Source of the DNA: a virus
Taxonomy: Duplodnaviria; Heunggongvirae; Uroviricota; Caudoviricetes
IMG/VR virus record: IMGVR_UViG_2609459832_000011
Direction: 5' to 3' (one strand)
Length of the DNA: 7,171 nt
The notes beneath the pieces are model-generated. The model was not told the DNA's origin, did no database searches, and saw nothing but the letters and a program-made list of their open reading frames with translations. The stretch's first letter is position 1, and the number at the start of each line of letters is the position of its first letter. This document shows, piece after piece, positions 1 to 7,171 of this stretch. Position numbers and translations under genes: made by a program.

Positions 1-1587
1 ACCGTGCGTTATCTGCCGGAGTCCTTTGAGATCCCCTGGAATCCGAACACCCGTACCGAGGTGAGCACCCTCTGCATCAGCCAGTTTCGCTACAGCGCAC
101 AAATCCGCCCTTCTTCCGTGGTGACCAAAGACTACACCTTTAAACGACCCGGCTGGGCAGGGCGTTTTGATCAGGAAGGCCAGTACCAGGATTACCAGCG
201 CACACAGTATGAAGTGTATGACTACCCCGGACGTTTCAAGGGTGCCCACGGGCAGAACTTTGCCCGCTGGCAGATGGATGGCTGGCGCAACAACGCAGAA
301 GTGGCGCGCGGAACAAGCCGTTCGCCGGAGATATGGCCGGGACGGCGAATTGTGCTGACGGGGCATCCGCAGGCGAACCTGAACCGGGAATGGCAGGTGG
401 TGGCGAGCGATCTTCACGGCGAACAGCCGCAGGCGGTACCGGGACGCAGGGGTTCAGGCACCACGCTGGATAACCACTTTGCGGTAATCCCGGCAGACCG
501 GACATGGCGGCCACAGCCGTTGCTGAAACCGCTGGTGGACGGCCCGCAGAGCGCCGTCGTGACGGGACCGGCAGGCGAGGAAATCTTCTGTGATGAACAT
601 GGCCGCGTGCGGGTGAAATTTAACTGGGACCGCTATAACCCGTCAAACCAGGAAAGTTCATGCTGGATCCGTGTGGCACAGGCGTGGGCAGGCACCGGCT
701 TTGGTAACCTGGCGATACCGCGTGTGGGTCAGGAGGTCATTGTGGACTTCCTCAACGGCGATCCGGACCAGCCGATCATTATGGGGCGTACCTACCACCA
801 GGAAAACCGCCCCCCCGGCAGCCTGCCGGGGACGAAGACGCAGATGACGATCCGCTCGAAAACCTATAAGGGCAGCGGGTTTAATGAACTGAAGTTTGAC
901 GATGCGACAGGGAGAGAACAGGTCTACATCCACGCGCAGAAGAACATGAACACCGAGGTGCTGAATAACCGCACCACTGATGTGATAAACAACCATGCCG
1001 AAAAAATAGGTAACAACCAGGCGATCACCGTTACCAATAACCAGATCCAGAACATTGGCGTTAATCAGATACAGACGGTTGGTGTCAACCAGGTGGAAAC
1101 GGTGGGCAGTAACCAGATTATCAAAGTGGGATCAAACCAGGTTGAAAAGGTGGGGATCATTCGTGCGCTGACGGTGGGTGTGGCTTACCAGACGACGGTA
1201 GGCGGCATTATGAATACCTCGGTGGCGTTGTTGCAGTCCTCACAGGTAGGGCTGCATAAATCACTGATGGTGGGAATGGGCTACAGCGTCAATGTGGGGA
1301 ATAACGTCACCTTCTCGGTGGGCAAGACAATGAAGGAAAACACCGGACAAACAGCAGTTTATTCTGCCGGTGAGCATCTTGAACTCTGCTGTGGTAAGGC
1401 AAGGCTGGTGCTGACGAAGGACGGAAGCATATTTCTCAATGGTACGCACATTCATCTGGAAGGGGAGTCGGATGTGAACGGTGATTCGCCAGTGATTAAC
1501 TGGAACTGTGGTGCCACACAACCTGTACCGGATGCGCCTGTGCCGAAAGATTTACCCCCCGGAATGCCGGATATGCGGCAATTTTGA
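1..1587 (+). CDS. vgrG: Type VI secretion spike protein VgrG, C-terminal part (5' end lies outside the window)
   Basis: The frame is open from base 1 to TGA at 1585..1587. The translation has VgrG hallmarks: a gp27/gp5-like region (FKRPGWAGRFDQEG, RWQMDGWRNNAEV, GRTYHQENRPP), Val-Gly octapeptide beta-helix repeats and a DUF2345-like C-terminal region. The GTG at 4 used by the ORF track is internal, not the real start. Confidence 0.9.
   Translation, partial: TVRYLPESFEIPWNPNTRTEVSTLCISQFRYSAQIRPSSVVTKDYTFKRPGWAGRFDQEGQYQDYQRTQYEVYDYPGRFKGAHGQNFARWQMDGWRNNAEVARGTSRSPEIWPGRRIVLTGHPQANLNREWQVVASDLHGEQPQAVPGRRGSGTTLDNHFAVIPADRTWRPQPLLKPLVDGPQSAVVTGPAGEEIFCDEHGRVRVKFNWDRYNPSNQESSCWIRVAQAWAGTGFGNLAIPRVGQEVIVDFLNGDPDQPIIMGRTYHQENRPPGSLPGTKTQMTIRSKTYKGSGFNELKFDDATGREQVYIHAQKNMNTEVLNNRTTDVINNHAEKIGNNQAITVTNNQIQNIGVNQIQTVGVNQVETVGSNQIIKVGSNQVEKVGIIRALTVGVAYQTTVGGIMNTSVALLQSSQVGLHKSLMVGMGYSVNVGNNVTFSVGKTMKENTGQTAVYSAGEHLELCCGKARLVLTKDGSIFLNGTHIHLEGESDVNGDSPVINWNCGATQPVPDAPVPKDLPPGMPDMRQF
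1006..1155 (+). repeat. Tandem octapeptide Val-Gly repeats inside vgrG (IGNNQAIT/VTNNQIQN/IGVNQIQT/VGVNQVET/VGSNQIIK/VGSNQVEK)
   Basis: Six consecutive 24-nt imperfect direct repeats, each encoding xxxNQxxx with V/I-G periodicity. This matches the classical vgr repeats of VgrG proteins. Confidence 0.65.
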
Positions 1588-1662: not shown

Positions 1663-1932
1663 ATGGGCGGAAAACCGGCGGCGCGGCAGGGTGATATGAC
1701 CCGCAAGGGACTGGATATTGTGCAGGGTTCAGCGGGGGGGCTGATAGGTGCGCCGACGGGAGTGGCCTGTTCGGTATGTCCGGGAGGGATTACCTATGCT
1801 AACCCGGTGAACCCGCTGCTGGGTGCGAAGGTGCTGCCGGGCGAGACGGACCTTGCGCTGCCCGGCCCGCTGCCGTTTATTCTTTCCCGCGCCTACAGCA
1901 GCTACCGGACCAGAACACCCGCGCCGGTGGGG
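1663..1932 (+). other. PAAR-like N-terminal domain of Rhs (boundaries approximate)
   Basis: KPAARQGD motif followed by a Gly-rich stretch with paired cysteines (VACSVCPGG). This is the conserved Rhs N-terminal region that caps VgrG in characterised systems. Confidence 0.6.
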
Positions 1933-4900
1933 GTGTTTGGTCCCGGCTGGAAAGCGCCCTTCGATATCCGCTTACAGATACGCGATGAAGGCCTGATACT
2001 CAACGACAACGGCGGCAGGAGCATTCACTTTGAGCCGCTGTTTCCCGGCGAGATAAGCTACAGCCGCAGCGAGTCACTCTGGCTGGCGCGGGGCGGGGTG
2101 GCGGAGCAGCACAGTTCGCAGCCGCTAAGCGCACTCTGGCAGGTGCTGCCGGAAGATGTTCGCCTGAGTCCGCATGTGTACCTGGCGACAAACAGCCTTC
2201 AGGGGCCGTGGTGGATACTCAGCTGGCCGGAGCGGGTGCCGGGGGCGGACGAGGTGCTGCCGCCTCCGCCGCCCGCATACCGGGTGCTGACGGGGGTGGT
2301 GGACGGCTTCGGGCGGACGCTGACTTTCCACCGGGCAGCTAAGGGTGACGTGGCGGGCGCGGTGACGGGGGTGACGGACGGCGCGGGCCGCCGTTTTCAC
2401 CTGGCGCTGACCACGCAGGCGCAGCGGGCGGAAGCCTTCCGTAAACAGCGCGCCACGTCTTTATCTTCCCCTGCCGGTCCCCGTTCTGCTTCCTCTTCTT
2501 CTGCTTTCCCCGACACGCTGCCCGCCGGTACAGAATACGGTGCCGATAACGGTATCCGGCTGGAGGCGGTGTGGCTGACACACGACCCGGCATACCCGGA
2601 TGAACAGCCGACTGCGCCGCTGGCGCGCTACACGTACACGGCCAGCGGAGAACTGCGGGCGGTGTATGACCGCAGCGGGACGCAGGTTCGCGGGTTTACT
2701 TATGATGCGGAGCACGCCGGGCGGATGGTGGCACACCATTATGCGGGGAGGCCGGAGAGCCGCTACCGGTATGATGATACCGGGCGGGTGACGGAGCAGG
2801 TCAACCCGGAGGGGCTGGACTATCGCTTTGAGTACGGGCAGGACCGTGTGACCATCACGGACAGCCTGAACCGGCGGGAGGTGCTGTACACGGAGGGCGA
2901 AGGCGGCCTGAAGCGTGTGGTGAAGAAGGAGCATGCGGACGGCAGCATCACCCGCAGCGAGTATGATGAGGCGGGGAGGCTGAAGGCGCAGACGGATGCG
3001 GCGGGACGGCGGACGGAGTACCGACTGCATATGGCGTCTGGAAAGCTGACTTCAGTGATACTGCCGGATGGCAGGACGGTACGGTATGGCTATAACAGCC
3101 AGCGGCAGGTGACGTCGGTGACGTACCCGGACGGGCTTCGCAGCAGCCGGGAGTATGATGAGAAGGGAAGGCTGGCGGCGGAGACCTCACGCAGCGGTGA
3201 GACGACGAGTTACAGCTATGATGACCCGGCGAGTGAGCTGCCGACAGGGATACAGGACGCGACGGGCAGTACAAAACAGATGGCATGGAGCCGTTACGGT
3301 CAACTGCTGGCCTTTACGGACTGCTCGGGGTACACGACGCGGTATGAGTACGACCGGTACGGTCAACAAATCGCCGTTCACCGGGAAGAAGGCATCAGCA
3401 CTTACAGCAGTTATAACCCGCGTGGGCAAATGGTCAGTCAGAAGGATGCGCAGGGGCGTGAAACCCGTTATGAGTACAGCGCCGCAGGAGACCTGACAGC
3501 AACGGTATCACCGGACGGTAAACGCAGCACCATCGCATATGATAAACGCGGGCGTCCGGTGAGTGTGACGGAAGGTGGACTGACGCGCAGCATGGGGTAT
3601 GACGCTGCCGGGCGCATCACCGTGCTGACCAACGAGAACGGCAGCCAGTCCACGTTCCGGTATGACCCGGTGGACAGGCTGACTGAACAGCGCGGTTTTG
3701 ACGGCCGGACGCAACGTTACCACTATGACCTGACCGGAAAACTCACGCAGAGTGAAGACGAGGGGCTTATCACCCTCTGGCACTACGATGCGTCGGACCG
3801 CATCACGCACCGGACGGTGAACGGCGACCCGGCAGAGCAGTGGCAGTATGATGAGCACGGGTGGTTAACCACCCTCAGCCATACCTGTGAAGGCCACCGC
3901 GTGTCGGTCCACTACGGCTATGACGATAAAGGCCGCCTGACGGGTGAACGGCAGACGGTGGAGAACCCGGAGACAGGGGAGATGCTGTGGGAGCATGAGA
4001 CGGGGCATGCGTACAGCGAACAGGGGCTGGCGACCCGTCAGGAGCCGGACGGTCTGCCGCCGGTGGAGTGGCTGACGTATGGCAGCGGTTATCTTGCGGG
4101 GATGAAGCTGGGCGGAACACCGCTGGTCGAGTACACGCGGGACCGGCTGCACCGTGAGACGGTGCGCAGCTTCGGCAGCATGGCAGGCAGTAATGCAGCA
4201 TATGAACTGACCAGCACATACACCCTCACAGGGCAGCTACAGAGCAGGCACCTGAACCTCCCGCAGCTTGACCGGGACTACGACTGGAACGACAACGGAC
4301 AGCTAATCCGCATCAGCGGCCCGCAGGAGAGCCGGGAGTACCGTTACAGTGACACGGGAAGGCTGACGGGCGTCCACACCACGGCGGCGAACCTGGATAT
4401 CGATATCCCGTATGCGACGGACCCGGCAGGAAACCGGCTGCCGGACCCGGAACTGCACCCGGACAGCACGCTCACGGCGTGGCCGGATAACCGCATCGCG
4501 GAAGATGCGCACTATGTCTACCGCCACGATGAATACGGCAGGCTGGCGGAGAAGACGGACCTCATCCCGGAAGGGGTTATCCGGATGCACGACGAGCGGA
4601 CCCACCACTACCATTACGACAGCCAGCACCGTCTGGTGTTCTACACGCGGATACAGCACGGCGAACCACAGGTGGAGAGCCGGTACCTCTATGACCCGCT
4701 GGGCCGCCGGACGGGAAAACGGGTATGGCGGCGGGAGCGTGACCTGACGGGGTGGATGTCGCTGTCGCGTAAACCGGAGGAGACCTGGTACGGGTGGGAC
4801 GGTGACAGGCTGACCACTGTACAGACCCAACAGACAAGAATCCAGACGGTATACCAGCCGGGAAGCTTCACGCCGCTCCTGAGAATCGAAACAGAGAATG

Positions 4901-5898
4901 GCGAACAGGCGAAGGCGCGGCACCGGAGCCTGGCGGAGGTGTTGCAGGAGGACACGGGGGTGACGCTTCCGGCGGAGCTGGCGGTGATGCTGGGGAGGCT
5001 GGAGCGGGAACTGCGTGCGGGAGCGGTGAGTGCGGAGAGTGAGGCATGGCTTGCGCAGTGCGGGCTGACGGTGGAGCAGATGGAAAGCCAGATGGAGGCG
5101 GAATACATCCCGGAGCGGAGGCTGCATCTTTACCACTGTGACCACCGGGGACTGCCGCAGGCGCTCATCAGCCCGGAAGGGGAAACGGCGTGGTGCGGGG
5201 AGTATGACGAGTGGGGGAACCAGCTTAATGAGGAGAACCCGCATCACCTGTACCAGCCGTACCGGCTGCCGGGGCAGCAGTATGATGAGGAGTCGGGACT
5301 GTATTACAACCGTCACCGGTACTACGATCCGTTGCAGGGGCGGTATATCACCCAGGATCCGATAGGGTTGAAGGGGGGAATAAATCTATACACGTATCCA
5401 CTGGCACCAATACGTTACACTGATCCACTGGGGTTAGAACGAGTTATAAGTGTATATGGGCCTCCCGCTCCAGACCGGGCAGGTGCTGAAACTCCTCTTG
5501 TTCTTACTGATATGACTGGAGGAGTGACTATTTATTATGATCCTGAAACAGGTGATTCAATGACTTTTGATAGTAGCAATAGAATTGATCGTCGTTCTCA
5601 ACGTGGTGCTGGTGATCCATATACAGGTGAAGTCGTTGGTTGTGAGACAAATGAATCAGGAATATCGGCAGCATATGGCACAACGAAGATCTATACTACA
5701 GATACTAGAGCAAGATGGCTACATGGTGGGGGATCATCGTTGCGCGATCCTTATGCTCCTCGACAAGGCTGGAAACCAACTATGGGATGTACCCGTGCAC
5801 AGAATGAAGATGTAGATGAGTTGTGTAAGAAAGTGACAAGTTGGATGTATTCGCATCCTGGAGAGAGAATTAGATATGAACGTTTTAAGACACGTTAA
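1663..5898 (+). CDS. rhs: Rhs family polymorphic toxin: N-terminal PAAR-like domain, RHS/YD-repeat core and variable C-terminal toxin tip
   Basis: 1411-codon ORF from ATG 1663 to TAA 5896..5898. The N-terminus [12 protein letters not shown]...[14 protein letters not shown] contains a literal PAAR motif. Many YDxxGR(L/V) repeats follow. The hyperconserved core end is [38 protein letters not shown], then a divergent AT-rich tip. Confidence 0.95.
2626..4710 (+). repeat. RHS/YD-repeat region (protein-level repeats forming the Rhs shell; boundaries approximate)
   Basis: Recurrent YxYDxxGRL-type motifs, e.g. [97 protein letters not shown]. Confidence 0.7.
5422..5436 (+). other. DPxGL motif (DPLGL) marking the end of the Rhs core and the likely autoproteolytic release site of the C-terminal toxin
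   Basis: The sequence [10 protein letters not shown] closes the conserved core. The DNA composition switches from GC-rich to AT-rich within about 50 nt of this motif. Confidence 0.8.
5437..5895 (+). other. Rhs C-terminal toxin tip (153 aa) with a YkuD-like L,D-transpeptidase catalytic signature
   Basis: His at 5722..5724 (WLHGGG), then 18 residues, then T-M-G-C-T-R with Cys at 5788..5790 and Arg at 5794..5796, then NEDVDEL at 5803..5823. Compare the YkuD consensus HG-x(14-18)-[ST]xGC[IV]R-x-N[KE]D[VI]xEL. Confidence 0.65.
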
Positions 5899-6109
5899 TG
5901 CGATTAACATGGGAGTGTGCATTCTAATTTTGGTTATTGGATGTGCAAATGCTAAAGTTCTTAAACGATGTATATTACCCGCTCCTGATGGTGGCGTAGA
6001 AAAACTATCAAAACCCAACTTACATGGAGTAATTAAAAAAGTTGATTTGAACACAAATGAAGCGGAAATTAAAATAAAAGAGGGGGGGGGCAGTGAGTTT
6101 TATTTTTAA
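5876..6109 (+). CDS. Putative Rhs immunity lipoprotein (77 aa as written; possibly truncated by a frameshift at the G9 tract)
   Basis: ATG 5876 overlaps the rhs 3' end by 23 nt. GGAGAG lies upstream at 5860..5865. The N-terminus [23 protein letters not shown]|ANAK has a basic n-region, a hydrophobic core and a lipobox (V-I-G-C, Cys codon 5942..5944). The ORF is AT-rich like the toxin tip and sits where Rhs immunity genes normally lie. Confidence 0.55.
6082..6090 (+). repeat. G9 homopolymeric tract inside the 3' end of the immunity-candidate ORF
   Basis: Nine consecutive G in otherwise strongly AT-rich DNA. A -1 G change shifts translation into a frame that stays open to TGA 6267..6269. Confidence 0.9.
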
Positions 6110-6309
6110 TGAGGAAACATTGTATTTTACTGTTTTTGGTGGGGATTTTATTATGGATGATTTAAAAAAAGTAAAAAATACGGAAGCATGGGTATGGTAT
6201 AAAAATTGCGATAGTAAAAATAAAAATGTGGCAGTTGAACTTCTTCAAATCTACGAATTGCATCAATGAAAAATATAGTTAAATAGAGGAGGTTATTAAT
6301 AGCAGGAAA

Positions 6310-6333
6310 AGCATCACGTGATGCTGATTTTTT
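6310..6333 (+). terminator. Candidate rho-independent terminator (AGCATCAC/GTGATGCT palindrome followed by a T6 run)
   Basis: Perfect inverted repeat at 6310..6325 (aGCATCACGTGATGCt) followed by GATTTTTTG, with the T-run at 6328..6333. It lies downstream of the rhs/immunity module and upstream of the H-rpt ORF. Confidence 0.45.
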
Positions 6334-6436
6334 GCACTAAATAATTCGCATTTTATGTTTAAAAATTGAGATATTCCTTATTACCTAAAGCTGTTTTTTA
6401 TTGCTTATACATGATCAAATACTCCTTACATAATTA

Positions 6437-6441
6437 AGGAG
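6437..6441 (+). promoter_or_regulatory. Ribosome-binding site for the H-rpt transposase ORF (AGGAG, 6-nt spacer to ATG 6448)
   Basis: Canonical Shine-Dalgarno core in TAAGGAGAACAAAATG. Confidence 0.6.
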
Positions 6442-6447
6442 AACAAA

Positions 6448-7171
6448 ATGGAACTTAAAAAATTGATGGAACATATTTCTGTTATCCCCGATTACAGACA
6501 AGCCTGGAAAGTGGAACATAAATTATCGGATATTCTACTGTTGACTATTTGTGCCGTTATTTCTGGTGCAGAAGGCTGGGAAGATATAGAGGATTTTGGG
6601 GAAACACATCCCGATGTTTTGAAGTGATATGGTGATTTTGAAAATGGTATTCCTGTTCACGATACTATTGCCAGAGTTGTATCCTGTATCAGTCCTGCAA
6701 AATTTCATGAGTGCTTTATTAACTGGATGCGTGACTGCCATTCTTCAGATGATAAAGACGTCATCGCAATTGATGGAAAAACGCTCCGGCACTCTTATGA
6801 CAAGAGTCGCCGCAGGGGAGCGATTCATGTCATTAGTGCGTTCTCAACAATGCACAGTCTGGTCATCGGACAGATCAGGACGGATGAGAAATCTAATGAG
6901 ATTACAGCTATCCCAGAACTTCTTAACATGCTGGATATTAAAGGAAAAATCATCACAACTGATGCGATGGGTTGCCAGAAAGATATTGCAGAGAAGATAC
7001 AAAAACAGGGCGGTGATTATTTATTCGCGGTAAAAGGAAACCAGGGGCGGCTTAATAAAGCCTTTGAGGAAAAATTTCCGCTGAAAGAATTAAATAATCC
7101 AGAGCATGACAGTTACGCAATCAGTGAAAAGAGTCACGGCAGAGAAGAAATCCGTCTTCATATTGTTTGCG
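6448..7171 (+). pseudogene. H-repeat-associated (H-rpt) ISAs1-family transposase gene interrupted by an in-frame TGA at codon 60 (6625..6627); 3' end outside the window
   Basis: The translation [116 protein letters not shown]... matches the H-rpt proteins found in E. coli Rhs elements, recalled from memory. The same frame stays open from 6628 to the window end. The track ORF 6629..7033 is in a different frame and is not the real gene. Confidence 0.8.

Follow-up and report, generated by a model that had tools for sequence, protein, structure and literature searches.

Does the in-frame TGA that interrupts the transposase gene at the end of this locus mark a dead copy of an insertion sequence, a recoded codon, a boundary between two genes or an error in the sequence? 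A preliminary description of the window, by which we mean the whole 7,171-nucleotide stretch of DNA analysed here, assigned the open reading frame (ORF) that begins at position 6448 to an H-rpt transposase and raised these possibilities. H-rpts are reportedly long known as an accessory part of Rhs elements. The classic Rhs/H-rpt papers are those of Zhao et al. 1993 and Wang et al. 1998. Transposition of an H-rpt has not been observed (PMC3032704).

The window lies at the distal end of a type VI secretion cluster of E. coli and holds the 3' part of vgrG, an rhs gene, its immunity gene and the start of an insertion sequence (Table 1). In related genomes the gene order hcp-vgrG-rhs-immunity-H-rpt matches that of the window, in agreement with the preliminary placement of the H-rpt directly after the rhs toxin/immunity pair. 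The cluster adjoins yafV, ivy and fadE in related complete genomes, and in K-12 tRNA-aspV lies on the opposite side of the yafV cluster site; the H-rpt marks the distal edge of the hcp-vgrG-rhs-immunity cargo between aspV and yafV. An rhs element, rhsW1, has been described at the K-12 interval b0215-b0221 in the genome of E. coli W (PMC3032704). Across 6270-7171, the window shares 99.7-99.9% identity with RefSeq loci whose annotation is ISAs1/ISEc1 transposase, and it is one base apart from N1286 (long form) and one base from S51 (short form).

In relatives, this H-rpt (hereafter copy a, the window type) is followed by a gene for a 150-aa hypothetical protein and a DUF3969 gene and, further downstream, by a frameshifted RhsE-like second rhs with ydcD, two dead H-rpts and yafV. 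S51 is an exception, with yafV directly after the H-rpt and without the second rhs element. It had been proposed in the preliminary description that insertion of the H-rpt displaced orphan rhs-CT/immunity cassettes, and this was not borne out: in the window, the interval from the immunity gene to the H-rpt holds no orphan rhs tip, and where the sequence past the element was checked for orphan rhs fragments in the relatives, no orphan tips follow the H-rpt, the next element being either the RhsE-like rhs or yafV. Displacement of orphan cassettes is neither needed to explain the locus nor shown. In one orthologous locus (L004), 24 nt at 16666-16689, ~130 nt past the right end of copy a and within the 150-aa hypothetical gene, show 83% complementarity to the left subterminal sequence of the element (TGATTTTTTGCACTAAATAATTCG); they may derive from the end of a further H-rpt in inverted orientation, or the match may be due to chance.

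The Rhs tip that follows the DPxGL motif (5350-5895) matches the Pfam YkuD L,D-transpeptidase catalytic domain (E 3.7e-5) with a score just above the gathering score, and the immunity protein begins with a lipoprotein-like signal (…LVIGC). As judged from sequence, these features suggest that the Rhs toxin is periplasmic and acts on peptidoglycan, and a toxin of this predicted kind presumably resembles the Tlde1-type type VI effectors. The immunity gene is frameshifted in the window by a G9 tract at 6082-6090, compared with G8 in most genomes, so that two ORFs (5876-6109 and 6093-6269) take the place of one. Of 1015 complete genomes with the immunity gene, 52 have the exact G9 86-mer, and PGAP annotates the G9-type gene as two hypothetical proteins; the ninth G could reflect genuine polymorphism caused by slippage, or a sequencing error that recurs at the homopolymer. 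In the rhs core, at ~3305-3353, 63 nt (21 codons, in frame) are missing from the two genomes most similar to the window (99.8-99.9% identity), which have a coding sequence of 4173 nt compared with 4236 nt in the window and most other relatives, and the breakpoint of this difference falls within a 14-nt overlap.

Table 1. Positions of the features identified in the window.
Feature	Position	Strand	Remarks
vgrG, 3' part	4-1587		upstream of rhs
rhs core gene with YkuD-like C-terminal toxin domain	1663..5898	+	
Immunity gene of the rhs toxin	5876..6269	+	130-aa lipoprotein in relatives
H-rpt/ISEc1 (ISAs1-family) insertion sequence, left 869 bp	6303..7171	+	alignment with K-12 yhhI, ydcC, ybfL, ybfD and orthologous copies
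Left terminal inverted repeat CAGGAAAAGCATCA	6303..6316	+	variant of canonical CAGGGAAAGATCA
Perfect 16-nt palindrome AGCATCAC/GTGATGCT, then GATTTTTTGC	6310..6335	+	terminator scan and alignment
Shine-Dalgarno AAGGAG	6436..6441	+	6 nt before ATG
Transposase ORF, 5' part (59 sense codons and TGA)	6448..6627	+	~2/3 of the DDE_Tnp_1_assoc N-terminal domain
Derived patch of four linked substitutions (6611C, 6616G, 6625T, 6626G)	6611..6626	+	consensus CTC GAT TTT TTG AAG CAA
Premature TGA, followed by T	6625..6627	+	ancestral CAA (Gln60), two substitutions off
Remaining transposase frame, codons 61-241 of 378	6628..7171	+	end of DDE_Tnp_1_assoc and start of DDE_Tnp_1

The assignment of the ORF to an H-rpt (ISAs1-family) transposase held up, being supported by the family model, by the inverted repeats and by the position next to rhs. 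The NCBIfam ISAs1 transposase model NF033564 matches with 287.7 bits (E 1.1e-85; cut-off 70 bits), and the Pfam domains DDE_Tnp_1_assoc and DDE_Tnp_1 match residues 8-94 (E 3.5e-33) and 102-217 (E 2.3e-18), respectively. Alignment with other copies corrected the start of the element from 6448 to 6303, the site of a left inverted repeat that starts 33 nt past the stop of the immunity gene; the succession of rhs, immunity gene and left inverted repeat is that of an accessory H-rpt. In orthologous loci the whole element measures ~1292 bp, with a right end ~13 nt past the ORF stop, and the right repeat, seen in these loci outside the window, reads CAGGGCAAGATTA as reverse complement. As expected of the ISAs1 family, inverted repeats bound a unit of ~1.3 kb.

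No common direct repeat that would represent a target-site duplication was found between the left flank (...TTATTAATAG) and the right flank in the orthologue L004 (GGTAGGAGGC...), as would be the case if the insertion is ancient or if copies have since recombined. The palindrome near the left end is particular to this copy, canonical H-rpt left ends being without it, and a sequence akin to that of the window is found at the left end of the UTI89 copy, which occupies the same position (GTAATGCTGCTTTTTTG, compared with GTGATGCTGATTTTTTG in the window). With the T-run that follows it, the palindrome resembles an intrinsic terminator that would end transcription of the rhs-immunity operon.

Translated in frame, 6448-7171 yields 241 codons with a single stop, the TGA at codon 60. 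The preliminary description had read this region in the same way, and its three observations stand: the TGA is the sole in-frame stop, codons 61-241 are open to the end of the window, and a good ribosome-binding site precedes the ATG (Table 1). The probability that the 181 post-stop codons stay open by chance is ~4e-6, given the base composition. Because the DDE_Tnp_1_assoc domain spans the stop, the TGA interrupts one gene and is not a two-gene boundary; a conserved true stop separating two genes, which had been named as a finding that would overturn the preliminary reading, was not encountered. With a stop at codon 60 of 378, the copy lacks the intact transposase ORF of an autonomous element, which makes it a defective H-rpt/ISEc1 within the ISAs1 family.

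Alignment to intact H-rpt ORFs, a check put forward in the preliminary description, identified the ancestral codon as CAA (Gln60). Codon 60 is CAA in K-12 yhhI, ydcC, ybfL and ybfD, as well as in another copy of the same locus (copy c), and it is AAA in the more distant copy b. A scan of 185,579 species representatives recovered 26 copies, which come from a handful of Escherichia (including E. albertii) and Shigella genomes and from a few metagenome bins labelled as other taxa; 25 of the 26 have CAA at codon 60 and one has CAC, and TGA occurs in none of them. The change from CAA to TGA requires two substitutions, and the CGA intermediate on the common background was absent from all 5426 complete genomes searched. 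TAA at codon 60 is present in 4 records of the 5426, one of which is labelled ydcC. As the two records inspected (L73 and PK5074, our loci L036 and L037) both carry it in yhhI at the RhsB locus, the TAA60 alleles look like independent single-step knockouts, separate from the aspV-yafV copy. A search by eye for a quasi-palindrome or template-switch source of the 6611-6626 substitutions found no convincing template.

The TGA allele is common among E. coli. An exact match to the 62-mer that spans the TGA is present in 1041 records among 5426 complete E. coli genomes, and related TGA haplotypes occur in 292 (UTI89-type) and 59 (B1172-type) records, although summing the haplotypes slightly overcounts genomes, since at least one genome carries both the UTI89- and the B1172-type. 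An orthologous copy with the same TGA is found in S51, N1286, GE3, USDA-ARS-USMARC-50748 and CFIAFB20190172, and in these five related genomes RefSeq/PGAP lists it as a pseudogene with an "internal stop". These counts bear directly on whether the TGA is a sequencing or assembly error in the source genome, as had initially been considered. The window does contain a homopolymer-length frameshift (G9 vs G8) in the adjacent immunity gene, a typical type of long-read assembly error, but the TGA is a two-base substitution and not a homopolymer change, and the identical 62-mer was recovered from 1041 complete chromosomes that had been sequenced independently of one another. With the same TGA shared by more than 1000 such genomes, an error can be excluded with near certainty.

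We also compared the window with UTI89 and B1172 (phylogroup B2-type), in which an H-rpt occupies the same position, between type VI cargo and yafV, downstream of cargo that differs from that of the window (a PAAR-like effector in UTI89 and a Tle1 phospholipase in B1172). Both copies share the TGA, on the backgrounds CTC GAT TTT and CCC GAT TTT, compared with CCC GAT GTT in the window, and they have accumulated a +1 and a -1 indel, a ~311 bp deletion and a further stop. Over codons 61-378, dN/dS is 0.4-0.6 for the B2 copies compared with ~0.1 among other copies. This is the pattern expected of a shared, old, inactivating stop with subsequent neutral decay.

The window-type copy has a dN/dS of ~0.1 relative to intact copies, and its 378-codon ORF is open apart from the TGA in every orthologue examined. 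Taken alone, low dN/dS and an open ORF could suggest continued constraint. However, copy c, which is dead by a TAA at codon 18, has an equally low dN/dS, and low divergence is therefore no evidence of present function; dN/dS here cannot separate live from dead copies and reflects inherited or converted sequence, with the B2 copy alone showing relaxation.

Comparison of H-rpts within and between rhs loci revealed that they are mosaics. From the left end through the TGA, copy a differs from copy c at 26 of 297 positions, compared with 1-4 of 545 across 6627-7171, where the window itself is one position away from copy c; the window has c-type bases at 7011, 7053 and 7122 and an a-type base at 6972. 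All four combinations of codon 55 (CTC/CCC) and codon 60 (CAA/TGA) exist, which points to sequence exchange among copies or to mutations that recurred. S51 has one H-rpt (L001, 8179-9315), a hybrid with a 5' part, including the TGA, from copy a and a 3' part from copy c, and S51 is without the ~15 kb that separates copies a and c elsewhere (compared with L004, 15384-24214). This arrangement implies that recombination between two H-rpts probably deleted ~15 kb, including the second rhs.

The TGA patch is also embedded in yhhI at the RhsB locus of O111:H11 (L038), where it is flanked by K-12-yhhI-type markers at 6576 and 6666; given these markers, the converted tract is at most 88 bp. It is likewise present in ydcC at the RhsE locus of O157:H7 (L008), with flanking markers unlike those of copy a. 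One nonsense allele thus traces short-tract gene conversion among three rhs-linked loci. Other dead copies carry other lesions, namely the TAA at codon 18 in copy c and K-12 ybfL and frameshifts in copy b. Separately, the O157:H7 ydcC has, at ~7256 on the scale of the window, a 40-nt insertion of tandem AGCAGAAC-like units (protein ...AEQQNSRTAEQQNSRT...) and, ~20 nt beyond it, a single-base insertion that shifts the frame.

The stop, its ancestral codon, its distribution, the mosaic structure of the copies and the B2 decay were all shown from the sequences. Taken together, they make it very probable that the window holds the left two thirds of an H-rpt/ISEc1 whose transposase was inactivated by an old nonsense mutation, Gln60 (CAA) to TGA, and that this is an ordinary pseudogene. 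The pseudogenising mutation that had been among the initial suggestions is thereby borne out by the ancestral CAA, by the presence of TGA in more than 1000 genomes and by decay in B2. Translation would stop after 59 residues, inside DDE_Tnp_1_assoc, and because it ends there no DDE catalytic domain would be made and the copy could not mobilise itself; full-length protein is probably absent. The lesion is old, as the strongly decayed B2 copy at the same position shares the TGA. The rest of the ORF would have remained intact since H-rpt paralogues homogenise by gene conversion, and not through use; gene conversion, we infer, accounts for the otherwise open ORF, and the same process would have exported the short TGA patch into yhhI (RhsB) and ydcC (RhsE) of other lineages.

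Other readings give the TGA a role. It might be kept as a throttle, with leaky or programmed UGA readthrough allowing a few ribosomes to make full-length transposase, a possibility favoured by the otherwise intact ORF of window-type copies, by the frequency of the TGA allele and its presence at three loci, and by the fact that UGA is the leakiest stop codon in E. coli. However, the base after the stop is T, and Poole, Brown and Tate (1995) reportedly place UGA-U with the contexts in which UGA terminates more efficiently in E. coli. The stretch of 66 nt that starts at the TGA has a fold energy of -14.8 kcal/mol (z = -1.84), yet 10 of 200 shuffles fold as well, and the sequence of this non-significant 3' hairpin is identical in CAA copies. 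Moreover, the B2 lineage with the same TGA has decayed through indels, a deletion and raised dN/dS, and copy c is equally preserved despite its TAA at codon 18, so that preservation is explained without function. Recoding is not known in the ISAs1 family. Some low-level natural UGA leakage may occur at codon 60, but programmed readthrough is unlikely, with a small chance of being correct. Selenocysteine insertion, which the preliminary description had mentioned alongside it, would draw on the identity of the codon, UGA, and on the fact that a 3' hairpin can be drawn. That hairpin, the selenocysteine-type structure looked for downstream of the TGA, is not significant, predates the TGA and has no Rfam match, a scan of 6200-7171 at E values up to 10 giving noise only. 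None of the homologues has Cys at aligned codon 60; in the ancestor and in paralogues the residue is Gln, Lys or His, and the site lies in the non-catalytic N-terminal domain. Both marks of a bacterial selenoprotein, a UGA-specific SECIS hairpin and Cys homologues, are thus missing. To our knowledge, E. coli has three known selenoproteins only, the formate dehydrogenases, and selenocysteine is effectively excluded.

The TGA could instead be a true stop between two products, of which one would be an N-terminal peptide of 59 aa (a DNA-binding transposition inhibitor, for instance) and the other a separately initiated C-terminal protein. Such an arrangement would fit the retention of TGA in more than 1000 genomes and the good Shine-Dalgarno sequence before the 5' ORF, but the stop cuts DDE_Tnp_1_assoc (residues 8-94), the first in-frame start past it is the ATG of codon 94 (6727), which is not preceded by a Shine-Dalgarno sequence, the ATG at 6629 belongs to another frame, and intact homologues are single 378-aa proteins; we consider two genes here very unlikely. 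A similarly slim prospect is that the TGA patch is favoured and spreads among H-rpts at the three rhs loci, silencing or throttling of the transposase being advantageous. The patch would then act by low UGA readthrough or through the 59-aa peptide as an inhibitor in trans, and it would be a domesticated regulatory allele and not simple decay.

An ordinary pseudogene, the reading we prefer, is an already known kind of insertion sequence remnant, and public annotation flags the exact copy. The closest intact counterparts are K-12 YhhI (b3484, RhsB-linked) and YdcC (b1460, RhsE-linked), which share the 378-codon ORF, the inverted repeats and the position downstream of rhs and an immunity gene, have ~97-99% DNA identity to the window copy and bear the NCBI name ISEc1. 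Both are intact and have CAA60, whereas the window copy has TGA60 and a variant left end with a palindrome. K-12 ybfL and copy c resemble the window in having a single nonsense codon in the N-terminal domain of an otherwise open ORF, but theirs is TAA at codon 18, one step from CAA, and that of the window is TGA at codon 60. A9K64_RS19360 (S51) and N1709_RS19315 (USDA-ARS-USMARC-50748) lie at the same locus, carry the same TGA and are annotated "ISAs1 family transposase, pseudogene, internal stop"; the RefSeq orthologues have 1-4 point differences from the window, and the closest genomes have G8 instead of G9 and lack the 63 nt of the rhs core. At the same chromosomal site in K-12, adjoining yafV, the H-rpt remnant yafF (b4503) is a 189-bp fragment, compared with the 5' two thirds of a full-length copy in the window, and no type VI or rhs genes are annotated at K-12 aspV-yafV, where the H-rpt fragment alone remains.

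For annotation, these findings mean that the ORF should remain a pseudogene and be treated neither as a recoded gene nor as an assembly error, and that the H-rpt beside the type VI rhs module is a fossil landmark, not an active transposon. The single nonsense allele is usable as a marker of short-tract conversion between H-rpts at three rhs loci, and H-rpt copies act as recombination anchors, the a/c hybrid of S51 being associated with the loss of ~15 kb. Both the conversion marker and the recombination anchors fit the original idea of "rearrangement hot spots".
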